Shown: one piece after another, positions 910 to 59,701 of the stretch
Position numbering within the stretch: position 1 is the stretch's first letter
Layout of the letters: each line of letters begins with the position of its first letter
Source of the DNA: Moniliella sp. 'wahieum'
Lineage: Eukaryota
DNA: 64,000 nucleotides
Reading direction: 5' to 3'
NCBI GenBank assembly: GCA_003971905.1
Contig: RSEE01000038.1
Span: 186,001-250,000 of the forward strand
The notes under the pieces: model-generated
Seen by the model: the letters and a program-made list of their open reading frames with translations, nothing else
What the model was told of the DNA's origin: nothing
Databases searched by the model: none
Made by a program: the position numbers and the translations under genes

Positions 910-3900
910 ATGGCGCGACGCAACCCCCCCGCACACGCTCCGCCTCCCACACCTACCGCCCCACCACGGAGCCCGACCCACCCGACCCCCACCCCGTCTC
1001 CTCCCGACCCGTGCTGCCACCCGCACCTCCGCCCATCTCCTCCACCCGCCAACAACCCTCGGCCCCCGCCTCCGCCTCCGGCCCATCCACACGCGCGTCC
1101 GCCTCAGAGACCGCGTCTGCATCTGCCTCGGGGTCCACATCCGTCCCCCCTTCCCCCCGGAACGCGAAGCGTCGCCGGACGACTCGGATTCCGCTTCCAA
1201 TTCCGGTGCCGACACCGAGGCTGGGCCCCTCATTCTCCCCCCCCGCGACGCGAAGCGGATGCAGCAGCGCAAGGCTCGTCTCGCCGACTCGGTCAAACGG
1301 TTCGCTACCTGCTCGGGCAGACGACTGTTCCAGCACTTTATCGACATGAAAAAGTCCAAGGATCCTGCTTTTGCCGCTTTGCTTGAAAATGTCGCGTCAA
1401 CCCGCGGTGGTGGCGCACGCAAGTCGGCCCGCGGCGGACGTCGTCGGAGTGGCGTGGATGACGACGAAGGGTTGTTCGAGCAGGACGAAGATGACGCGTT
1501 TGTTTTTGAGCAGTCGCCTGGGTATGTGAAAGGAGGTCAGCTGCGCGCGTACCAGATTGACGGGTTGAATTGGATGATGTGAGTCCCTGTTCAGTTGCTT
1601 TTTTTTCCTCTTGAGAGATGACCTGCTAACCATGAAGCATTGTGCAGCTCGCTCTACCACCACGGCATCAATGGCATTCTCGCTGACGAGATGGGGTTGG
1701 GCAAGACGCTGCAAACGATCTCCTTTCTCGGTTACCTCAAGTACGTGTGCAACAAACCAGGCTTCCATCTCGTGGTCGTGCCCAAGTCAACGCTGAACAA
1801 CTGGCGACGCGAGTTTGACAAGTGGGTTCCCGGTTTCCAAACTGTCGTTCTCCAAGGGGACAAGGAAGAGCGACGGCAGATTTTGCGGGAGCGGGTACTG
1901 GCCGAAAAGTTTGATGTCCTGATTACGACGTATGAGATGTGCCTTAAGGAGAAGGGTTCGCTCCTGCGCCTGTCGTGGGAGTACATTGTGATTGACGAGG
2001 CACATCGGATCAAGAATGCCAACAGTATGCTGTCCCAAATTGTGCGCGCGTTTGATTCGCACGGCCGTCTGCTCATTACTGGCACACCGCTGCAGAACAA
2101 CTTGATGGAACTTTGGGCGCTGCTCAACTTCCTTCTTCCTGATGTTTTCAGCGATGCTTCCGATTTCGAAAATTGGTTCGCGGGCAAGACGGCGGAAAAG
2201 GAAGGAGAGGGAGGGGCAGAGGCCAAGGCCGAAGAGCAAGATGCCATCGTCAAGCAACTCCACAAGGTTTTGCGTCCTTTTCTCCTTCGCCGTGTCAAGG
2301 CCGACGTGGAGAAAAGTCTGTTGCCCAAGAAGGAGATCAACTTGTTTATTGGCCTGACCGAGATGCAGCGGACGTGGTACAAGGCGTTGTTGAAAAAGGA
2401 TGTGGATGCCGTGACGGGTCTCAATGCCCGCAAAGAAGGCAAGTCGCGCCTGCAAAACATTGTGATGCAGCTGCGCAAGTGCTGCAATCACCCCTACCTC
2501 TTTGAAGGTGCCGAGCCCGAGGGGATGGAAGACGAGCAACATTTGATCGACAATGCAGGCAAGATGGTAATCCTGGACAAACTGTTGGCTCGAATGAAGG
2601 AAAAAGGGTCTCGGGTCCTCATCTTTTCCCAAATGGGCAGGATGCTTGATACTGTCGGATTACTGTGCCTTTCGTGAGTACGAGTACTCCCGCATCGATG
2701 GTAGTACCGCGCACGAGGAGCGGGTGGCAGCGATTGATGAGTTCAACGCACCCGACAGCAACAAATTCATCTTCCTTCTCACCACCCGTGCTGGCGGCCT
2801 GGGCATCAACCTCACCACGGCCGATGTGGTGGTGCTGTATGACTCGGACTGGAACCCACAAGCGGACTTGCAGGCTATGGACCGTGCCCACCGCATTGGC
2901 CAGACCAAGCAAGTGTATGTTTTCCGCTTTGTCACTGAGCACACGGTCGAAGAGCGTGTGCTGGAGCGAGCGACGCAGAAGTTGCGTCTGGACCAGCTCG
3001 TCATCCAGCAGGGTCGGCATCAAGAGAAGCAGAAGGCACAGCAGAACAAGGAGGATCTGGTGGATGCGATCAAACATGGAGCAGACAAGATCATCAGTGG
3101 CGAAGGAGGCATGTTGATTGACGAGAACATTGACAATATTATTGCCGATGGCGAGAAGCGCACGGCGGCGCTTCAAGCACGCTACCAAGACGTGGGCATC
3201 GATGTGCTCAACTCGATCCAGAATGGCGAACGGCCCGACTGGACCACTCAGACAGCCGAAGACGAGGCGGATGAGGAAGCACTCAACAAGTTATGGATGG
3301 AACCCACCAAGCGGGAGAGGCGCACCAACTACACCGAGTACTATGGCGCTGGCGACCCAAGTTCCAAACCGAAAGCTGCCACGGTTAAGGTGCCCAAGCC
3401 ACCGAAACAAGTTCAGACGCTCTTCTTCCAGTTCTTCCCCAAGCGCCTCCTTGAACTTCAGAAGAGGGAGGTTGCTGCGTTTCAGCGCAGCTTGGGGTTC
3501 CGTGTACCACGCCAGGAGGCCGCCGAGGGCCAGACGGCCGAGGAGGTGGAGGCGGAACGAATGCGCAAGCAGGCGTTCATCGACTCGGCCGAAGAACTGA
3601 CGGAGGAAGAGTTGCGGGAAAAGGAGCAGTTGGCCACTCAAGGGTTCGTTACTTGGCAAAAGAGTGACTTTTGGAACTTTGTTCGGGCGAGTGAGAAGTA
3701 CGGTACGGCGGCGCATGCGACCATCGCCGAGGAACTTTCGTCGGGCCATCGTCATAAGCGGACGGAGGAGGAGGTTCGTCGCTACAGCGAGGAGTTTTGG
3801 TCTCGCGGCCCAGACGAAGTACCGGACTGGGATAAAATCGCTGGGCATCAAGGAGGGCGAGGCGAAAGTGCTCAAGGCAATTGAAGATGAACGTCTACTT

Positions 3901-4320
3901 CGAGCAAAGATGAAGCAGTACAGCGATCCGCTGCGGCAGATCAAGTTGACCTATGGATCCAACAAGGGCCAGAGGTACGCGCCCGATCAAGACAGGTGGC
4001 TTCTCCTTCAATTGGCCGAGCATGGACTGCAAGATGCCGAGGTGTTTGAAAGGATTCACCAAGAGATCCGCATCACTCCTCTCCTCCGCTTTGACTTTTG
4101 GATGAAGTCGCGCACAGTGCAGGAGATCACAAGGCGATGCCACAAGCTGATCCCTATTTTCCTCAAGGGGGAGCCAGGGTATGTCGATGGCGCAGCAACC
4201 CGTAAAGGTACCAGGGAAAGAGGAGCTGGGGCCGACGCCGAGGCGGAGGCTGAAGCAGACGAATCGGCCGAAGAGGCGGAAGCAACCGCTCTTCCGAGCA
4301 AAAAGCCCAAGCTCTCCTAA
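910..4320 (+). CDS. ISW2: ISWI-family SNF2 chromatin-remodeling ATPase (ISW1/ISW2-like); intron ~1579-1648; apparent frameshifts near 1300, 2645 and 3845; start approximate
   Basis: SNF2 motifs [65 protein letters not shown] motif ([11 protein letters not shown]) and [12 protein letters not shown]-terminal SANT/SLIDE-like region ([29 protein letters not shown]). Confidence 0.92.
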
Positions 4321-35027: not shown

Positions 35028-38000
35028 GACGACGGGAACGGAGGGAGTGTGGGGGGCGGAGGGAGGTGAGAGAGCTGTGGGGCTGAACAAGGTGGCGGCA
35101 AGACGGAGCCGAAAAGGGCACGCCGCTTTGCTGGAGGTTTCGCGTGTACCTTGAAGTTGGGGGGACTATTGAAGGCTAAAGCCGTTGAAGCGTGAAGCTT
35201 GAAGCTGAGCTGAGGCGCTGAGGCTCGACGGTTGAGTTGAAGTGCCATGTGCCTGGCATGGCGACTGGCCCATCGGAAGTCCGAAATCAGATCTGGGTTG
35301 GTAATAACGCAATCATCCATCCTGAAAGACGCGAGCATCCACGCGGGCAGCAGGGTGGGCAAATGTGTGTGTGACCGGATGCCGAGAGCAGACAAAATGC
35401 GCGCTCTGGCGCTACGGCAGGAGTTGCATGGATGTGGCTTGTGCAATGCTCGATGATCGATGAGCCCGAGATCGAGTCTGAGATGGGATGGGATGGCAAC
35501 CCAAAGACGAAGGAGGGGCCGTGGGAACGAGGCAAGCAGGAAAAGAAACGGGACGGGGGTGTGTTGGACACGTTGGACGGTTGAGTTGGACAGTGGCAAC
35601 ATGTGGCACCCGCTAGGTAGCTAGAACTAGGCACTGCATCCTGCCAGTTGGGGCAACGTCAATGTGATGGCCCACCCAACCCCGCCACCAGCACTGTGTG
35701 AAGGCAAGCCGGCAGAAGAAGTGAGCGCTGAGCTGGAAAGCGGAGCAGGACTGGCGCCGTGCCCCTCGTGCCTCGGCCCTTTGCATCGCCGAAGTTTAGC
35801 ATACGTTGAACGTGTAACATGCAACCTGCAACGCGCGCCGGGCGCGGTACCGGTTACCCTTTTGAGAAACAAGGAAGAAAAACCCAGGGGCACTTCATGT
35901 ACATAACACCGGTCACCGATCAGCGCTGGCGCTGAGGCCCTGAGGCATCAGGCGCGCTCAGGGGTCACGCATCACGCGGTCACACGTCACACGCGTCACA
36001 TGACATGCCTGGCACCGCTGTTGCATTCTGGGAAGGTGGCAGGAGGCCGTAGCAGGTAGGCTGTGTGGGCTGGGTGGGCTGGGTGGCCGCTAGTCGCATG
36101 TCACATGTCACATGTAACATGTCACAGTGGCTCTAAAGCTAGTGCTGGTGAGTACGTTGAGTGAGCACGAACGAGCGTCAAGCGCTCAGGTCAGGCGCAC
36201 CCTGCGCGATCAGCACGAGCACACAGGCAGTGCCGGATGGCCTGCGCTTCCAACGTTGCAACGCCCAAACCGCGCAGGGATCCTCGTCTCCTTGTCTGCC
36301 TTCTCTGCCCTGCCGCCTCCAAGCTCCCTGGCCACTGCTTCCACTGCCTTGAAGCGGAAGTAAGCGCTAAGCTACGCTGGAAGCTTCATCGATCATCCGG
36401 GTAATTGGATCATCTCGATCATCAGATCCAGCCGCGGCCAAACAGCGCGGCATCTCCTGGCATCTCGTGCCGCCAGGGTCTGAAAGGCCTTGAAAGCACA
36501 CGTGTCAAGTATCAACCACGTGACCAGGGTTACGTTCAAGGCTGCTAGGCGCCAGAGGCATAGCAAGCACGCTAATGACTCGGACTATATTCCAGAGTAC
36601 TGGCCGGTGGTGGCATAGGTGGAAAAGGGACGCCACTGATTGCCAAAAATGACATGGGACAAGTAGACGCGGATAAATCGATCCCGGCGAGAGTCTCTCT
36701 AGATACAATGCCTTCTTTCTATCAGATCTGGAGCCAACTTCAACTCCACGTTCCCGCCCTGACTAGCTTGACTGCAGCCGTCCCCATGATGACATGTTAC
36801 TGATAGCCTGAGTACGGGGCATATGGCACGGTTGCGTTGCAGTCGGGTGAAGCACGTCCAGTGTTTATTAACTCGTGCGCGAGGCCGCCCCATTTACGAC
36901 CTCGAACTTTGTGCTCCGCCCCGCCCCCTGTGCTGGAGACGCCTTGCGCGCGCGCCTTCCCTCGGTTGCATTATCACCACTTGCGTTCGACGGCACCCCT
37001 CTGTCATTTTGGGACCGCATACCACCGTGCCCACTGGCCAGTTCATCAGCCCTTTGACACATATACCACTTTTAGTTTGCAGGACTGACTCTGCTCTGCG
37101 CGTACCTTTTTGTGATATGTGTGTAATAGGAACGAGATTGCTTTGGATGTCGATGGTATTCATTCAGGGTGCATATGGAATCGTGCTTTATATCCCAGAG
37201 GAAAAGGAGAAACAATCGTACGGTAAACCACGCTTGATGATGGAGAGAGGCACAAAAGGTCAAGGAGGATCTGGAACAGAGGGTCATACGCACACCCGGT
37301 GGGTAAGTGTGTGTGACCCCTTCACTCCCACCGGTCGCCTTTGAGGATTTGGATCTCGACATGGCCAAGACAAGCAAGGCGAGGCTCCTCCCCGATCCAA
37401 TGGATCCGGGAGACGGAAGGGTTAGAAGATCATTGCAGTGGAGAGAGAAGGAAGAGAAATCAGCATCCTTACAAAAGAATCATGCCATGGGTGCGCTGAA
37501 GAAATGGACGAGGTAGCGCCTTGGTTAGCACATCGCGGCATTTGGCGGCGCCAGGTATGTGCTCAAGAGTGGCCCGACGCATGGCAGCCCGGTATAATCG
37601 ATGTGGCGCAGACGACCCGTTTCGTGCCACACGGACAACATCATCGTAAGCGGCTTGGCAGTCGCTGCAGATGTGAATGGGATGAGCGGGAGGTAAGACA
37701 TCAAACTCGACTAGGACGTTGCGGAGGTACTAAGCCTGTTGCAGACCCTCGCCATTCGCCACATACTCTGCTGCGGTGGAGTAAGTGAGAAGGGTATGAG
37801 GGTGGCTTGCCCACATGGCTGGTACCCCCAGACGAATGTAACGCCGACGATGAGCACATTGGCAATTGCAGGAACAATGACCGCCTCTCCTCAACCAGAG
37901 CATGTGCTGTCTTCACCACACAGCGTGGAATATTTACCACACCACGGTCCGTTCAAGTAATCGCCGGATCCATGTCCTATAGTCGCACGGGGCACTGCCT

Positions 38001-39663: not shown

Positions 39664-42254
39664 ATGGACCACGTGCCCCCCTCCGCCCCGCCCTTTGGTG
39701 TGCTGGGCATGTCGACCACTCTCCCTCCGCATCCGCAGCGGCATCCTTCGACCTCGTCCGCGGCCTCGGGCAGTTCCCGCGGCGGGCCTAGCAGTGCCTC
39801 CAACACCAAACACCGCTGGACCGATGCCGAGACGCAAGCGTTGGTGGACGGATGCAACAAGCACGGTGTCGGCCAATGGAAAAAGATTTGGAAGACCCGC
39901 AACTGCGCGCGCACTTTGACCACCGGTCTGCTGGCGACCTCAAGGACCGCTTCCGCACCTACTTTCCCGATGCGTACCACGAACTTTACCCGAATGCCAA
40001 AACGCATCATGGACACAAAGTCCGTGGCCGCAACGCCCAAGGCCGATCGATTTTTGAGCGTGGCCTGTTCCGCCCCAAAAGGGCGTTCTCGTCCGAAGAG
40101 ACACAAGCATTGTACGATGGGTGGAAAGAACATGGTTCCCATTGGAGCAAGATTGCTCGATTGCCACCGTTTGAAGGGATGCGAACTGCGACCGACTTGC
40201 GCGATCGGTTTCGAAATGCCTTTCCACAGGAATACGAACAGGCTGGGTTTAAGGCGCGTACACGGCAGCGGCGACGCGGTGCGGCTCGCTCCGAGGCCCC
40301 CCCCCCTCCCTGGACCAACAGGGCGATGCGGCGGCAGCCAGCTTGGTAGCTGCCTTTCCTCCTGCTCCGCCTTCGTACTCCGACTCGGGATCGGGATGGA
40401 TCTCCTCCTCGTCCGTGTCGGGTGCGTCGGTGGGAGGATCGGACTGGGCGGCAGTACTGTCGGATGCGTCGGGCGACTCGCACTTGGCTGCCCTGGCCGG
40501 GTCCGAACCTGGGTCCCTTTCCCACGAGGCGACACGCGCGTTGCAAGGTCTTTCGCTCCAGCCGCCTGCAGCGGGCTTGTACCCCGCCAAGGTTGATGTC
40601 GACTCGGCTGGTGGGGAATGGTTCTCGGCTTTGTCCGATGTGGCCCCGAGTGGAAGTGGAAGTGCGGGCTTGGGGCCCTCGGGGCCTAGTCGTTCCTCTG
40701 GGAGCAACAAACGACGAAAACCGCATACACTTCGTTCGGGCGGCTCACCCATGGGATCCGTCGATGCGCCGCCGGCGGGTGGATTCCCGTGGCTAAGCGA
40801 GATGCAGATGCAGATTGCCATGCAGCTCCAAGCGCAACTCCTCGATGGCTTGGATGACGCAGGCGAGGAGGAACAACATGGATCGGGAGAAGAGGAGGAT
40901 GACGAGTACGACTCGGATGGTGAGGATGACGAGGCTTGGCACCAGCGTTCTTCCCAAGCGCACGAATTGCGCACGCGCACCCTCACTATGCAAGGCGAGG
41001 GTGATCGCAAGTTGGCGCGACACGCGACGGCCCACTCGCTCGAACGGGCGGATACCTTCCTGCCCTCGGTTCCTACCGTCGTGCAGCCTCCCCCGGCCAG
41101 TCCTTCCAGGAGACCCAACCCGCTCGGTCCTGTACGCGCGGGGGAGACAACCGATGGCACCGATGCCGGAGGAGGAGCGAGCTGGAGCATGGGCATGCGA
41201 ATGGACGAAACGATGCTCGACTTTTTCGCAAGAATGGCGGCTGAGATGGGACTTACCCCTACACAGTTTGCTGCGACGTGGGCTGACGCCCACCATGCCG
41301 ACGCTGACCCAGGCTCCGACGCAGGGGAGGTGGTAAGACACGATGCGTTGGACCTTGGTCTTGCCCGAGCCGGGCTGGGCCAACCGGTGTCCAGCCAACC
41401 AATGCCTAGCCAACCAGTATTCGAGCCTGGACCATCAATACCTGCACCTGACGTCGTTTCTGCCGTGCCTGGGCCACCTGGCGTGCCAGTCGCTGGGGAC
41501 GACGAAGCACTGGTTGCTTGGATCGAACGGATCCAAGGAAAGGACGAGATGGACGCGGTAGGAGCAACACTGGCCGCGGTGGGATCGCACGTTGCCCCAG
41601 AAGGCAGCTCAGCGCATCCGGCTTCGCAAGCGGACGCTGTTCTCCCTACCAATCCAGACTGGCTGACGCACATGTCCTCGCTACCCCCATGGGAGGTACA
41701 GAGATGGTACCATCGCCGCCGTCGGCGGGAGAGACGAGGTCTCCTGGGTCGGGTTCAGGCTCGGGGTCGGTGGCCGCAGCACCGCCTTCGTCACATGCGT
41801 CGCCTTATCCTCCCCATAACCACTCTCACTCTCACTCTCACTCCCTACTCCTTCTCACTCTCACTCTCACTCTCATTCCCACTCCCACTCCCACTCCCCC
41901 TTTCCCCCGCACACGTCGCCCTACGCCACTTCTCCATTTACCCCGGGCGCTTCACACGTCTCCCCGCCTGCATCGGTGCCTGAGGCCCAGCTGGTAGCGG
42001 CTGCCGCTGCCCAAGCGCAAGTGCAAGCGCAAGTGCAAGCCCACGCGCAAGCCCAAGCTCAAGCCCAAGCCCAAGCACAAGCCCAGGCCCAGGCCCAAGC
42101 ACAAGCCCAGGCCCAAGCTCAAGCTCAAGCCCAAGCCCAAGCCCAGGCCCAAGCACAGATACATGCGCAGATGCAGGTGCCGATGGGCTGGGCGGGCGAC
42201 CTGCTGTGGACTCCGTTTGATGGATCGGCGCCGTCGGATGGCCATCCCGGCTGA
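39664..42254 (+). CDS. TAY1: Tay1/Teb1-like double-Myb telomeric dsDNA-binding protein with long low-complexity C-terminus; frameshifted
   Basis: Myb1 [53 protein letters not shown]; Myb2 [40 protein letters not shown]. Confidence 0.82.
41820..41897 (+). repeat. (CACTCT/CACTCC)n hexamer microsatellite inside the Myb gene
   Basis: cactctcactctcactct...cactcccactcccactccc. Confidence 0.8.
42009..42158 (+). repeat. Coding (CAAGCC)-type hexamer repeat encoding a poly(Gln-Ala) tract
   Basis: [18 protein letters not shown]... in ORF 41976-42254, with synonymous codon variation. Confidence 0.85.
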
Positions 42255-48546: not shown

Positions 48547-50514
48547 TCAGGTTGGTAGCCCGCTTGAGAGGAAAGCCAAGCGGGGTCTTGTTGACCCCAT
48601 CCATCCCTTTCCTTCCGCTACCGGTGTCTCGTGCGGGGACGACTGACGCGGGTGTGGCGGCATGGGTCGTGCGCGCTTCAAAGGTGGTTCCGCGCTGGCC
48701 GCGTTGGCCGTGCTGCCAAACGGTGGCTGTCCAGCCACACCAGACGAAGCAAGGGATTGCATCGCATGCGCCATCTCTGGTGCGATCAGTTCGAGGTTCG
48801 GGTCCGTGGGCGGCAGGGCAAAGCCCATGTCACAGGAGGTTTGGCTTGCTGTGCCGTTCGTCCCGCCACAGTAGGGTCGAATGGTGGAGAGCGGGTGTAG
48901 GAGCTAACAAAGGGGAAATGAAAGAGGCGAGAGTGGGGTTAGGCACAGGCACTAGACCAACAGATGGGTAAAGTACAGCGCAGGGGGTGGGGGATAACTA
49001 AAGACGTACGTTGGGACTTAATGTTGTTATTGACATCGGTCACTGTGCCAGCTCCAGCTCCAGCTCCAGGTGGTCGCAACACTCCACTGCGCACCATCAC
49101 ATCCGATACACGACGGATGCACCCGACCAGCACGCGCAACATCTGGAACATATCCTCAATATCGCGTACCGAGCTAACCCCGCCTTCTTCCGCATTGAGC
49201 AGCTCGGAATGCGCGTGGACAGCTTGCATCCGCTCTTGCACGCGCGCGACCCAGGCAGCGTCAAATTGGTTTTGGGGCGGGATATGGCCAAGGAGGAGAA
49301 GACACATGTACCCTGGTAGCCGTTTGGGGCGAAGGTCCTGAAGGTTGAGGAGGAGCAGGGGCAGAGGGGAGCGCGTTGAGGTTGGCCGACTTGGATTCGG
49401 CCTCGGGCGCTGCTTGGTCAGACGGCTTGGGCGAGTCGGGCTGGGTAGGGTAGCGCAAAAACTCGACTTGGAGGGTGCGGAAGATACGAAAGAGCAACGT
49501 TTGGATCGTCAGTTCCACCGGCCGCGTGATGGTCTCAATGCGAGAAAAGATGTTGCCCATCTCTTGCGGTGGGGTGGATTGTGGCGCGGCCGGTTGCGAC
49601 ACGGTATACCTCGTATCTTGGATCGTAGGCAACACGGGTGAATGAGGTGTGGTGGTGAAACGGAGGACGAGGCACGGTCGTCGAGCGTCGCACGATTCAT
49701 CATCTCGGATACGGACTCTTGTCGTGATCCAGCGCGAGACCGGGGCTTGTGGTACAACCCCGTCCCGGTAGATGTCGGTTGGAGGTACCGCTGCAGTAAA
49801 CCGGGACAGGTCCGAAGGTGAGGGAAGGACGGGGTGTGGGTACGAAGAGCGCCGCACCGCTGGGGGCGAGGTGGGTGCGAGAGGCAGACGAAGAAGGTGC
49901 TGGTCATGGAGAACGTGTTACCGCGTTTGCGGTTCGGGTGCAAAGTTGTCGTCGCCGTAGTGCGGGGGACGGCATTGTAAATGTTCCGCAACGAAGGAGG
50001 GGGAACAATAGAGGTGGTGGCACTGCGCGGGCGGGTGCGAGTGGGCGCAAGGGCTGGGCCGGAAGGGACATTGTCGCGCAACGAGTAGGCAGCAAGACTG
50101 GGCGTGGCAAATTTGTCGCCCATTCGACGGGGGAGGCCAGCGGCGGAGAAGGGGGGGAGGTGTGATGGCTTGTGCTCATGGGGATGATGGGGTGGTAGCG
50201 GCAGCGTCAATGCTGGTGGCGGTGGGAGTGGCGGGGAAGACAAAGGGAGAGCAAGAAGAGAAAGATGTAGAAAAGCAGGGGGTACTTACTCGGCAAAATA
50301 ATCAATTGTCGCTGGACAAACAGGCCATTTCTTAGGCCAGTCTGCCCCTGGCACAGGGGCAGTGTGGTAACCCCCTGTGTCTTGCACCTCCCCAGCTGCG
50401 GGCTGTTCCGGAGGAGGGGGCGGGGGCAACAGAGGCGCTGGTGTCTGTCTCGGGTTTGGCTGACCTACCGGCCGCAGGAACATACTCCAAGGAACCGACA
50501 GGCACTGCTGCCAT
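48547..50514 (-). CDS. Hypothetical Pro/Ser-rich protein (multi-exon, frameshifted)
   Basis: Chain of overlapping minus-strand ORFs; GTAAGT donor at ~50289; helical segment VARVQERMQAVHAHSELLNAEEGGVSSVRDIEDMFQMLRVLVGCIRRV; no family recognised. Confidence 0.45.
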
Positions 50515-51250
50515 GGCCAGCGCGATGTGGAAGAATGGGTTGATCGCATCACTAGGGTATAATAGCAGGGTGAGTCCGGTGAGTATTGAGTACTGGCTGT
50601 TGGGCATTGTGAGTATATGGAGTACTGCGAGAGTACACTCAGCTCAGTACACCGAGTTCAGTACACTGAGTGGGTAAACATTAAAGCGCCTCGGACGGCG
50701 ACACAAATCGCGAACCTCCACCCTATGCCAACCTCTGTCGATGTCCTTGAACTTTGGGGTGAAGCCGGTGAAGCTTGAAGCGTGTGAAGTCACGGAAGCT
50801 TGTGAAGAGCTTGAAGGCATAAAGCTCCTCCCGAAGTCCCGCGATTATACGAACTGTTACATGTTACTTGAAGCTTGATACATCAAGCTTCAAGCTTCAA
50901 GGGCAGTAGCGCCGTCACGGGTCAGCGCGTCAGCCTCAGTCAACACTATAGCCACTGTGACTATAGCCAGCCAACCCCCGCAATCAGTGCCTCAGCATCC
51001 GCATCAGCACTGAGATTGAGAGATCTGAGATCTGAGTGAGAGCTTCCTCAGTATCAGCGCAACTGTGGCTCTGTGCATATCTGCTGGGCGTCTCAGCGCG
51101 TCAGCCCTCCTGACACAGTCTCCGCCATCGCCCATTCTCCCATTGAATATTGAATATTGACCGATTGACCCCATCTCCATCCATCGACGATCCCTGTCTT
51201 CCGCTGAAAACCTCATCTCAAGCTTCAAAGCTTCAAGCTTCAACACGTTC

Positions 51251-51490
51251 TGTTGACTGTGATCCTCTGGCTCCCAGTCGGTAGACCAGGTTCGCCTCGG
51301 TTCCATCGGCTTCCACGCTGACGTCCCTGCGTGTCACTGTCCCTGTGCCCTGCACTCTCTCCTGTGTGACTCACTGTCCCTGTGCCTAGTCCAGCCTCCT
51401 ATATAGATGCCTCTGTACCCAGACCCAACTCTGGCTCCAATCCATCACCTTCTCCTCATCCTTCTGCCCGTCCGGCTCCCTAGGCCAACA
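51251..51490 (+). repeat. 5' LTR (240 bp)
   Basis: Identical by eye to the 3' LTR except one extra C (ccacgCtgacg vs ccacgtgacg); contains TATATAG. Confidence 0.93.
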
Positions 51491-51610
51491 GAGCTACAAT
51501 CTGATCCCCCCGGAAGGGGAGCGCTCTTCAAGCAAGCCCACCCCCAAGCCTACAAGCCCAAGCTAAGCCGCCAAGCCCACAAGACACACCGTCCTCCCGC
51601 CCAACAACAC

Positions 51611-51690
51611 CACCGCCACAATCGGCACCTTACCGCCACAATCGGCATACTACCGCCACAATCGGCATACTACCGCCACAATCGGCACAC
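51611..51690 (+). repeat. 4 x 20-bp tandem repeat inside the LTR element
   Basis: (Y)ACCGCCACAATCGGCA(YMY) x4: caccgccacaatcggcacct, taccgccacaatcggcatac x2, taccgccacaatcggcacac. Confidence 0.9.
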
Positions 51691-52410
51691 TCGTCCCCCA
51701 CAGATGGGGCAATGATTTTTAGGGACAACACACGACGGAACAAAACGTGTCGGGTATCGTCAACGAGACGAAATTCCTCCAACGACAAAACGGCGCAGGC
51801 GAATCGCAGAAAGCGGGGGTGGCTGCTCATCAAGTGCCCCACCCACGGCTACACGCCCCGGATTGCCAATTCATCCGGGGCACCTGGGGAAAGGATGGGG
51901 GGGGGTGGTCACCCAACTTCTTCCACTCCTCTTTTTCAACAACAAAGAGAACCCAAACAGATCAAGACGGTTGACGCATAGCGCCCGTTCATTTCCCATG
52001 CCCAATGGACCCCACTGGCACCAGGCATGCGGAACCAAACAACTACCAAACGCATCCAATTTTGATGCCAAACGACCTTGGACCGCATTTACTCCAAGTT
52101 TCCAATTTTCTTTCACTACACCTATAACTGGTGCTTTTTACTTTTGCCCACCAAATCGCTTCGGGGCGCAACCCCTACTACTTTTACTTCTAAGACTTCT
52201 ACAAGCATCTGGCGGTCGCACAATACACCAACCACAAGCGCTCGGCTCGTTCAGGTGTCATCCTGGACAGCGGGGGTGTAGGCCAGTCGTGTGGCCATGC
52301 ACAACTCCAGGCCATTCGTCCCGGTTGCCACTCAAGTCCTCCCCTCTCTACATCCACTGGCAGGAGCTCATCCCACAACCGATGTCTCCGGGTTCCCTGG
52401 CCAGCGGGGG

Positions 52411-52649
52411 TGTTGACTGTGATCCTCTGGCTCCCAGTCGGTAGACCAGGTTCGCCTCGGTTCCATCGGCTTCCACGTGACGTCCCTGCGTGTCACTGTC
52501 CCTGTGCCCTGCACTCTCTCCTGTGTGACTCACTGTCCCTGTGCCTAGTCCAGCCTCCTATATAGATGCCTCTGTACCCAGACCCAACTCTGGCTCCAAT
52601 CCATCACCTTCTCCTCATCCTTCTGCCCGTCCGGCTCCCTAGGCCAACA
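52411..52649 (+). repeat. 3' LTR (239 bp)
   Basis: Matches 51251-51490; followed by the TSD CGTTC. Confidence 0.93.
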
Positions 52650-53537
52650 CGTTCACTATCACTCCCCCTGCGTATACCACTCATTCCCCACACCCATTGG
52701 ATGGGCCACTAACCACTGCCGCTTTGCAGCATCCCCAAAACTTTTCTACTTTTCGAAACGGGCGAGTCTCTGAGGCTGAAGTGATCGGTGACGTTGAGGG
52801 TGACGTGTGACGTGTGAGGCCTCCTAGGCCTCAGGGGCAGATCAGGTTGATTGATTCACAGAGTATATTCACAGAAGGAGGACCGAGGACCAGAGTCGTG
52901 CGATTCAATTTTTCTTACAGGCTGCACCCAGCCAGTCACATGTGACGCGTGACGTCGCGCATCATGTCAACGTTGTCAACATTGCCAAAGACAAGCTGAC
53001 CGGCCCCTGCTGTGACCGCTGACCTTGAAGCTTGACATCTGCTGACCGGACTGACCGTACTGAGCTGAGCCACTGTCCCTCGTCGACGACAGGCAGCACC
53101 AGGCAACATTCCGCGCCCCCCGGTTCCTCCCGGCCACTGCCTCGAGATGGGTCCATGCGGCCATTGCCTAACATTGCGTAACATGTAACAGGCAACACCC
53201 GGCTCATCTGGTTTTCCTGTTCCCTGTCCTCCACGGCGTCAGAGCCCGCAACAAAAATATGCGCCCGCCACGTGAGACAGACCGCACTCGTGCAACATTG
53301 GGTTAGAGTCACATGTCACACGTCAGTCACATGTGGGGGCGGCGGTCACGTGCTCGACGTGCTCGGGTGAAATTGCAAGAGCTGTGGCGGGTGGATAGCT
53401 GGCAGGCGGGCAGGTGGGTACCCTGCTGGCTGGCGCCGCGGGCGCAGCAGCAGCTGCCGATCGGCGGGCCAGAGGCGCGGCGCCAGTGGGCGATCCTTGT
53501 CCCGCAGGATGCGTCTCGCCACCACCACCACCTTCGA

Positions 53538-54959
53538 ATGCGCTGCGCATCCTCCCCTGTTGCCGCTGCGCTTGCTCTCCTCGGCGCAGCAGCCCGCGCT
53601 GCTGCTGTCCAGGCCGGATTTGCCAACACCACCACTACCCTCTCTCAGACCGCCGGCTCGGCACCGCATCCACCCTCTCCCAGCGTGGCATCGCCCCCAA
53701 TGGCTGGGCGTGGGACCTGACTGCCTCCGCTCCCGCCTCCCGGCGGAGTCTGAGCCCACGCGCCGCGAACCAGTCGGCTGAGGACTGGGCCAAGAGCAGC
53801 CTCAACCTGTTCAATGGCCGCTTTGCTTCCAACCCTGGCAACCTCATTCTCACACCCGATCCTGCCGCCTCCAGCTCCAGCTCAGGGAGCGACAGCCAAG
53901 TCCTCTCTGTCACCTATGGCGCCAATTCATATGGCCTTCATTCGAATCCTACTGGCGGCACTGCATTTTACCCCCAGCCTTTCCTTGGAAGTAACGGTGG
54001 ACCTTCCTCCAGCAGCACGCCCTATGTCGTTGCTTCCCACACTGCTGGCCAGACCAATGCGTCCGACCCGTCCCGTCCGCAACTCGCGCTTACCTACTCA
54101 GTCTATCCCCTCAGACTTTAACTTTGTACAGGGAGGTAAGCTGCCCGGACTGTACTCCTCCGTCGGGGCATCAGGCAATGTGCCGATCAATGCTTCCACC
54201 TCCGGCTGTGAAGGCGGGTCGCTCGACGGGACCGGCACCTCCTGCTGGTCGGCTCGGGTGATGTGGCGCACAGGCGGCCAAGGCGAGATCTATGTCTACA
54301 TCCCCCAAAAGTTGGGGGAGGGTACAAGCTTTGCCCAGCCAAGAAGGCAACGCCCAAGGGTACCAGCATCATTTGCAATTCCGACTATGGCGCGTCTCGC
54401 TCGGACGTGGCTCCTTTACGTTCAGCAAAGGCAGCTGGACCAACTTGGCGCTCTACGTTCAGGTCAATGAGCCCAACGTTGCCAATGGTGTAATTGAATT
54501 GTACGTCAATGGAGCTTCCACGTCCGCTGTTTCGCTCAGTGGTGTCGTCTTCCGCACTGCCACCATCAATGCCGGCTCGGCCTCCTCACCGAACAATATC
54601 GCCTCCCACGCACGACGTGACATGTGGGATAACAACGGTCAGACGTGGGTAGACAAGATCATGTTTACTTCATTCTTTGGTGGTGCTTCGTCTTCATGGG
54701 CCACACCTAGTGCCACCCAAACTTACTTTAAAGATATCGCGGTACGTCCCTTTGACACAGTTTTTTTCTTCTTTTCCCTGCTTAGCGAATTGGCGATTGG
54801 GATTTGGAGTTGCTGATGTTTGCTTAGCTGTTTGCCGGAGACTCCTTCTCCTCTGTCAAGGGCAAGTCGTTCACACTTAGCCCAGCAAATCGCCTGGCCC
54901 AGTCCTCTTGGGGCCCCATCGCCCTCCTCATGGTGATAGCGATGGCCATCCTTCTTTAA
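53538..54959 (+). CDS. Secreted polysaccharide lyase family 14 (alginate/glucuronan lyase-like), possibly GPI-anchored; intron ~54742-54828; frameshifted
   Basis: Signal peptide MRCASSPVAAALALLGAAARA; FNFVQGGKLPGLY, CWSARVMWRTGGQGEIYVY, CNSDYG-SLGRGSFTF, NGVIELYVNG, FTSFFGG..SSWATP..QTYFKD; hydrophobic tail IALLMVIAMAILL*. Confidence 0.85.
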
Positions 54960-59043: not shown

Positions 59044-59701
59044 ATGGGCCTTTTCGACTCTGTACGTTACTACCTCCGTGGCCCTTTACCTTCCTTTCCA
59101 TCCGCATTCATTTCTTCCTTCCTTGCCTCCCATCGGTTTCCCTAACCATTTCCTCTTCTCTCTTTTTCTCTTTAAGGCTAAGCAATTCGCCGAGAACAAG
59201 GCTGAGCAGCAGTTTGGTGGTGGCAACAACAACCAATCTGGGGCTTTGGCGGCAACTCGGGCTCTGACTCGTACGGCTCGGGCAACCAGGGCGGTGACTC
59301 GTTCGGTTCGGGCAACCAGTCGGTGGCGGCTTCGGCGGCAACTCCGGCTCGGACTCGTACGGCTCCAACGACCAGTCTGGCGGCTTCGGCGGCAACTCGG
59401 GCGGCGACTCGTACGGCTCGGGCAACCAGTCCGGTGGCGGCTTTGGCGGCAACTCGGGCGGTGACTCGTACGGCAACGACCAGTCGGCGGCGGCTTCGGC
59501 GGCAACTCGGGCGGTGACCCTACGGCTCGGGCAACCAGGGCGGTGACTCGTTCGGGGGCAACCAGTCGGGTGGCGGCTTCGGCGGCATCGGGCGGTGACT
59601 CGTACGGCAACGACCAGTCCGGCGGCTTCGGCGGCAACTCGGGCGGCGACTCGTACGGCTCGGGCAACCAGGGCGGCTACGGTGGCAACGGTGGCTTCTA
59701 A
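59044..59701 (+). CDS. Small Gly/Ser/Asn-rich tandem-repeat protein (GGFGGNSGGDSYGSGNQS repeats); intron ~59062-59176; frameshifted
   Basis: MGLFDS|AKQFAENKAEQQFGGGNNNQSG, then repeated ggcggcttcggcggcaactcgggcggYgactcgtacggc units. Confidence 0.8.

Follow-up and report, generated by a model that had tools for sequence, protein, structure and literature searches.

Palindromic heptamer units at TNA sites in a Moniliella genome: probable excision footprints of an EnSpm-related DNA transposon lineage

What produces the patches of short palindromic heptamers that lie between genes in the genome of Moniliella sp. 'wahieum'? The question arises from a window of 64,000 nucleotides (contig C38, positions 186001-250000, in a 69.5-Mb assembly; contigs are written C plus a number), in which one such patch occupies positions 50740-51245. 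Six strings had been quoted from the patch in a sequence-only reading; all six are present, at 50855, 50867, 50883, 51021, 51142 and 51231, and the four coordinates which that reading gave agree with the sequence. The patch is part of an intergenic region (50124..53509) that runs from a minus-strand ORF with no Pfam match (start at 50123) to a plus-strand polysaccharide lyase 14 gene (Pfam matches at 53814-54816, inferred start at 53510). The latter gene and that of an ISWI ATPase (1640-4320) are broken across frames, probably by assembly indels or introns. Four copies of the window region are present, in two close pairs (C38/C9 and C89/C49); the pairs are about 70-80% alike in coding DNA and are rearranged relative to each other. 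This arrangement has the appearance of a phased allotetraploid, or of two diploids assembled together, and the best named relatives of the Nop58 encoded in the window are mostly smut-related basidiomycetes (60-65% identity). Other repeated stretches of the window, at 37120-37330, 41990-42180 and 59250-59700, are a dispersed repeat of 200 bp whose many copies are about 81% alike, a coding-like repeat of hexamers, and a repeat protein rich in Gly/Asn/Ser that has copies in the other subgenome.

The units obey a simple rule: a site xyTNAzw becomes xyTNA-y'x'xy-TNAzw, or the mirror form, with a gain of 7 bp that includes two inverted (P) bases. The sequence-only reading had described the head-to-tail copying of a pre-existing palindrome; we find instead a direct copy of 5 bp plus two inverted bases, so that the palindrome is created by the unit itself. 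Unit counts and haplotype comparisons were read from the assembly sequences. In the patch, the +7 unit GG-TGA-AGCT-TGA-AG (50767..50780) lies in an 18-bp stretch missing from the second haplotype, C9, and the +7 unit CT-TGA-AGCT-TGA-TA (50867..50880) faces a plain CT-TGA-TA site there. An array at 51142..51170, with two +7 units and one +8 form, stems from one AT-TGA-CC site, which is single in C9 (alignment read by eye). Conversely, the CG-TCA-CG site at 50910..50921 is single in C38 and doubled in C9, by one 7-bp unit. Common to both haplotypes are the +7 units TG-TTA-CATG-TTA-CT (50855..50868) and TC-TGA-GATC-TGA-GT (51024..51037), as well as the three-core array CA-TCA-AGCT-TCA-AGCT-TCA-AG (50881..50901); a last +7 unit, CT-TCA-AGCT-TCA-AC, is found at 51231..51244. 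The same intergenic region carries four further units (at 52941, 53024, 53177 and 53307, within 52941..53320), the second of which differs between the haplotypes. They lie beyond a 1.4-kb non-coding LTR-type element (51251-52649) that is unrelated to the units and missing from C9; it has LTRs at 51251-51490 and 52411-52649, TG..CA ends, a 5-bp duplication (CGTTC) and many near-identical copies in the genome.

Is the TNA core special? A comparison of TNA with other centres against a null, which the earlier reading had proposed as a check, shows enrichment at TNA and nothing comparable at the other three centres: the window holds 265 TNA-centred palindromic 7-mers against 162 expected from 20 order-2 Markov simulations (1.63-fold), and 215/181, 255/324 and 300/330 observed/expected for the rest (0.79-1.19-fold). 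Within the window, TNA-[flank-derived 4-bp palindrome]-TNA units occur 50 times, 9 of them within 50740-51245. Over 310 kb of C38, both strands, xy-TNA-y'x'-xy-TNA occurs 242 times, plain tandems excluded, against 3.0 expected, and the same form at 15 other 3-base cores 6-29 times against 4.3-16.3; in 100 kb of C89 the TNA count is 72 against 1.0 expected, with other cores near chance. Moreover, of 161 matches to a pattern of five direct plus two inverted bases, 95 have TNA exactly two bases inside the duplicated segment, and each other offset accounts for 3-7.

For a stricter classification over 410 kb, only sites with non-palindromic arms at either position were counted, and the gain classes are therefore unambiguous. 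The +7 class with one whole 4-base palindrome then stands at 127 at TNA against 0.7 expected, and at 0, 5 and 5 at the control cores GNC, CNG and ANT. Rarer classes at TNA are +8 (10 observed, 0.2 expected), +9 (16 and 0) and +10 (3 and 0); the +3 and +5 forms are not enriched (+3, 308 against 330). Since the +9 form carries a whole 7-mer on each side, the duplicated unit is 7 bp long. Plain duplication reaches 13 at TNA (0.8 expected), below the 39, 29 and 32 of GNC, CNG and ANT. These figures bear on generic replication template switching combined with heptamer slippage. Short switches are known to make inverted copies (10.1101/038380, in the part covered here), plain 7-bp tandems are gained or lost between the haplotypes at all cores (6-25 polymorphic), and slippage may extend fully palindromic arrays; template switching, however, should be confined neither to TNA nor to one offset, which is at odds with the P-type +7 counts, and plain duplication is lower, not higher, at TNA. 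As a source of new units this explanation is largely refuted, and as a general account it is very improbable; a part in the growth of arrays remains plausible.

The junctions also speak to the way in which the DNA was cut. Even symmetry is found 470 times against 3.8 expected, and the odd symmetry of the hAT type 3 times against 1.8, that is, at chance, in counts where ambiguous sites entered several classes. Judged from these junctions, the symmetry appears RAG/Transib-like rather than hAT-like. The earlier link to PIF/Harbinger, elements with a 3-bp TWA target duplication, is not borne out: the duplicated target is 7 bp and not 3 (as the +9 and +3 classes show), the middle base of the core is C or G in 346 of 434 cases, and Harbinger DDE_Tnp_4 (PF13359) has no candidate in the genome, although divergent or spliced genes could escape this search, whose control matched in 1 of 14 prokaryote genomes.

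Do the units come and go? The proposed alignment of orthologous intergenic regions, carried out here between haplotypes, shows that they do, also inside the patch; outside the C29/C53 case described below, each difference may be a gain in one haplotype or a loss in the other. The within-pair alignment covers 342 kb with 10,623 substitutions and 8763 difference blocks. Their net lengths show a peak of 126 at 7 bp, with 81 at 6 bp and 48 at 8 bp to either side. Of the 42 pure 7-bp indels that have clean flanks, 10 are duplications of exactly five bases, 16 are plain tandems and 16 have other structures; in nine of the ten exact 5-base duplications, the two added bases read as the flank's inverted complement, with TNA two bases into the copy. 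In the aligned parts, the other haplotype shows a clean short allele for 45 of 555 P-type +7 readings at TNA (0-5 at each of seven control cores), and 114 are unchanged, together with their flanks; the flanks of the remainder are too divergent for scoring.

A sequencing or assembly artefact, the least probable of the explanations we considered, could draw on the many 1-3 bp indels and frameshifts of the assembly, in which 3248 of the 8763 difference blocks are indels of 1-2 bp. Against it stand the 114 readings that are identical in a separately assembled haplotype, the equal density of units in two diverged subgenomes (0.94-1.09 per kb in each of the four haplotype stretches), their depletion in ORFs, and their match to the target duplication of a real element, described below. 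On C38, ORFs of at least 250 codons contain 24 of the 338 units but 3181 of the 12527 TNA sites, and unit arrays are clustered, with 107 gaps below 200 bp against 33 expected. This distribution, together with the C or G at the middle of the core, could also suit arrays of transcription-factor sites maintained by selection, with bZIP-like TGA/TCA half sites. Yet all 16 arm dinucleotides occur in the units, the inner bases are copied from the adjoining flank, and units present in one haplotype are missing from the other, so that we regard selected arrays as highly unlikely. Supported from the sequence-only reading is a set of accumulated scars of insertion and excision by a TNA-centred transposase, with repair of the hairpin type, variable between haplotypes, mostly non-coding and clustered; its link to PIF/Harbinger is not supported.

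If the units are scars, an element that duplicates 7 bp around TNA should exist. Such an element is present outside the window, in a family with CTCACTG ends (CACTG begins at base 3) and copies on C11, C20, C23, C29, C34, C35, C66 and C149, in addition to remnants. A 14-base end pattern has 6 matches in the genome, four of which are element ends, and a 93-base end used as query finds 19 TIR matches; the pattern TNANNCTCACTG was dropped as an unspecific probe (412 matches, 238 in the control). Five copies measure 4.85-4.97 kb and are 96-98% alike, and one further copy, on C20, is a 378-bp derivative. The 78-bp TIRs are about 90% alike, and subterminal arrays of 10-11 bp repeats accompany them. 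Next to 18 of 19 element ends, TNA occupies the predicted NN-TNA-NN position, and identical 7-bp direct repeats flank 5 of 7 two-ended copies (C35, C29, C34, C23 and C20). The C11 copy has unlike flanks, since C11 lacks 67 adjacent bases that C54 has; on C38, a 173-bp remnant has flanks that are unlike each other, each NN-TNA-NN. Because the 7-bp repeats differ between copies, and because of the empty sites described below, the boundary of the element is fixed: the CTCACTG family duplicates the 7 bp xyTNAzw on insertion. No element of this kind came from a de novo scan of 850 kb for TIRs with 5-9 bp duplications, and none of 32 large haplotype differences, judged by eye, has a 7-bp TNA duplication. 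At C8:478694, target and TIR of an old element end are separated by two additional bases, CT, that the twin copy on C23 lacks; they could be P bases of an aborted excision, or a slip. Two elements of other kinds were seen on C9, one of 4.25 kb (about 337.5-341.7 kb) with CACTA ends, an apparent 2-bp duplication and nested repeats, found on C9 only, and a 115-bp MITE at about 586.1 kb, which has ends of the sequence CATAGCTAATCGAAA, shows a TT duplication and occurs in one haplotype.

Nine element sites were traced to the other haplotype, and four are informative; the C34 site has no orthologue, the orthologue of the C23 site is deleted, and the C66 and C38 sites are uninformative. Three informative empty sites (on C46, C22 and C49) are single unmarked 7-mers, one with a substitution and one with 13 bases differing alongside, which confirms a true target duplication. 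At the fourth, GTTGATG flanks the C29 copy (72.1-77.2 kb) on either side, and the orthologous position on C53 (392.2 kb), without the element, reads GTTGATG-CA-TGATG. Both repeats are kept, and the inner two bases of one are replaced by the inverted complement of those of the other. C53 thus carries exactly the scar predicted, at the site of the C29 element, in one of four informative cases. Insertion into a pre-existing scar cannot yield the C29 flanks. Between haplotypes, a difference of this kind is found at just 52 of 13684 comparable TNA sites (0 of 840 non-palindromic sites of the C53 arm type), so that one match in four by chance has a probability of about 1.5-2.3%. A single element/scar pair is nevertheless not a series, and this counts against the excision reading.

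With a probability of about 0.8, we interpret the units as healed excision footprints of a cut-and-paste DNA transposon. The element would insert at TNA by strand transfer with a 7-bp stagger, duplicating xyTNAzw as seen in the CTCACTG family. On excision, the even symmetry of the junctions suggests that each flank of the departed element would close into a flush hairpin where the duplication ends, in RAG/Transib style. Nucleases of the Artemis type open hairpins two bases off the tip. A host nuclease acting in this manner would leave 4-base overhangs, zw-w'z' and y'x'-xy. End joining would mostly keep one whole overhang and lose the other, giving +7, and would retain more in the observed +8, +9 and +10 classes. 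Repeated hits and later slippage may then lengthen units into arrays. Several other cutting schemes were rejected by geometrical reasoning only: hairpins of a tyrosine recombinase would leave a first copy in which the entire 7-mer is reverse-complemented, two Top1 cuts at TNA would give a y'x'-w'z' junction, and a 3-bp duplication with filler does not fit either.

Possibly, no element is needed. An element-independent host activity might nick two bases 5' of TNA, or cut with a 7-base stagger; strand displacement would copy five bases, a switch from TNA to TNA would move synthesis to the flap, two bases would be added up to run-off, and ligation would follow, with the transposon merely sharing the target. 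This scheme yields the dominant +7 form without a donor and agrees with the scarcity of elements and the broad arm spectrum of the scars. Flap-based duplications with inverted spacers, described in yeast work, also count in its favour. It does not easily produce the +9 form with a whole 7-mer on each side (16 against 0), however, and it needs two coincidences, an element with an identical 7-bp NN-TNA-NN duplication and an exact scar at an orthologous site; the analysis yielded no enzyme of that kind. We consider it unlikely, though less so than template switching, selected arrays or an artefact.

To which family does the element belong? The coding part of the CTCACTG element is in pieces, no intact transposase for it was found in the genome, and a genome search with an element fragment returned only six copies. 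Ten element fragments have no Pfam match, Transposase_21 included, and tblastn with the core of the two Tnp2 genes of the genome has no match in the element copies. A homologue of an element fragment was found neither in a word-indexed protein database nor in metagenome contigs; a weak protein match on C41 is not a transposase. One fragment matches three library proteins at E values of 3e-4 to 9e-4. One of these proteins has a sub-threshold DUF4218, and for another, pairwise alignment with the element gives an E value of about 1e-10 and alignment with a Tnp2-like gene on C34 gives 3e-15. Atlas gave 0.95, with DUF4218 on 11% of one cluster. The remnants also contain CRPC and HNTLH (C-x2-C and H-x3-H) in the expected order, in separate frame fragments. 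These protein remnants suggest a weak link to EnSpm-type transposases. Regarding the proposed search for DDE transposases and for elements with a 7-bp duplication, the CTCACTG family answers the second part, and no Harbinger, hAT or MULE domain appeared in the genome: the MULE domain PF10551 has 0 candidates (control matched in 3 of 14 prokaryote genomes), and neither the hAT dimerisation domain PF05699 nor the KDZ domain PF18758 has a match, their controls being likewise silent. A Transposase_21 search of the genome gave two loci. The Tnp2-like gene on C17 has no TIRs and has a syntenic twin on C62; over four frames they differ at 29 synonymous and 106 non-synonymous codons, and selection on a domesticated transposase is rejected because these differences are neutral. 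The gene on C34 (513.2-516.7 kb) is a single match in the genome, without TIRs within 10 kb, between HAD-phosphatase-like and transporter-like genes, and may be a fossil or domesticated.

Comparison with known systems, drawn from the parts of the cited papers covered here, places the family close to the CMCT clade (EnSpm/CACTA, Plavaka and ESTA, PMC12730594; CNIRT6 and CNEST of Cryptococcus, PMC12810828). Common to both are CACTG in the TIRs and short subterminal repeats, as well as, in the fragmentary transposase remnants, weak DUF4218 links and the putative C-x2-C and H-x3-H motifs, which in the clade lie, as C(2)C and H(3-4)H, between the second D and E (PMC12730594). In contrast, the clade has CA..TG ends and duplications of 2-5 bp (PMC12730594), 2-3 bp in the Cryptococcus members (PMC12810828), whereas the CTCACTG family has CT-CACTG ends and 7 bp, and its copies lack a Transposase_21 match or an intact gene. 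As the family resembles a CMCT element but departs from the clade in its ends and duplication length, we term it EnSpm-related. Duplications of 7 bp are also reported for hAT7 of rust fungi and for the fungal Kyakuja (KDZ) of Laccaria, the latter with CA..TG ends and, as described there, no TIRs, unlike CTCACTG (PMC12730594). Duplications of the hAT type are 7 or 8 bp long, and those of MULEs 8-10 bp.

Hairpins on the flanking DNA have been demonstrated for hAT, Transib, MULE and RAG (PMC5499845), and P nucleotides are taken as evidence of nick-hairpin cleavage (PMC4840297). The hAT elements share hairpin-derived P insertions with the units, but the palindromes left by Ac/Ds in Candida are centred on a base complementary to the one that adjoins the element, with odd symmetry (PMC5873905), which is not enriched here. 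As in V(D)J coding joints and Transib, the inverted bases come from the very end of the flank, with even symmetry and variable trimming (PMC4840297, PMC5499845). Transib, however, duplicates 5 bp and not 7 bp with a TNA core, and in the present case the +7 outcome dominates and scars occur genome-wide at about one per kb. In Ustilago maydis, a smut-related fungus, many small intergenic repeats have likewise been suggested to be transposon footprints (PMC4081816); they are 10 bp long, and the part of that paper covered here describes neither a P-nucleotide rule nor an element. Our literature search found no description of this signature, although the supplements of PMC12730594 could list similar ends, and no paper on the cutting chemistry of EnSpm/CACTA transposases.

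Did this lineage make the scars? The CTCACTG lineage or its relatives probably made most of them, the C29/C53 pair being one direct case. The targets of surviving copies read S-W-TSA-W-S in 8 of 12, against 12% of 185 isolated scars and 8% of the background, and W adjoins the core in 37% of scars and 47% of the background. Because its target arms are narrower than those of the scars, the present family cannot be shown to be the maker of most; either sister families made them, or copies with such flanks may excise slowly and persist. About 12 element sites must, moreover, explain tens of thousands of scars, which weighs against the attribution. From the surplus of 7-bp differences, about 64 in 342 kb, we estimate some 4,000 scars per haplotype pair, for which, over 3% divergence, a modest hopping rate would be enough. 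On balance, we lean, by a little more than an even chance, towards an unreported EnSpm-related lineage with CT-extended ends, a 7-bp TNA-centred duplication and RAG-like flush hairpins, a hit-and-run mutator that from a handful of copies left about 70,000 scars in 69.5 Mb, as palindromic heptamer microsatellites in intergenic and promoter DNA. Such a mutator would add about one new scar per 170 substitutions, and poor excision from their flanks may be the reason why a few copies persist.

Excision footprints are usually met singly, in marked genes; here they form a mutational signature that can be counted genome-wide and that records transposon traffic without the transposons. Now that element ends and target are defined, an excision assay is directly possible. 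If confirmed, the signature would provide natural evidence on cutting by EnSpm/CACTA-related transposases, extend the duplication length of the clade from 2-5 to 7 bp, and reveal a route for the birth of microsatellites and of palindromic sites of the TGA/TCA type in regulatory DNA.
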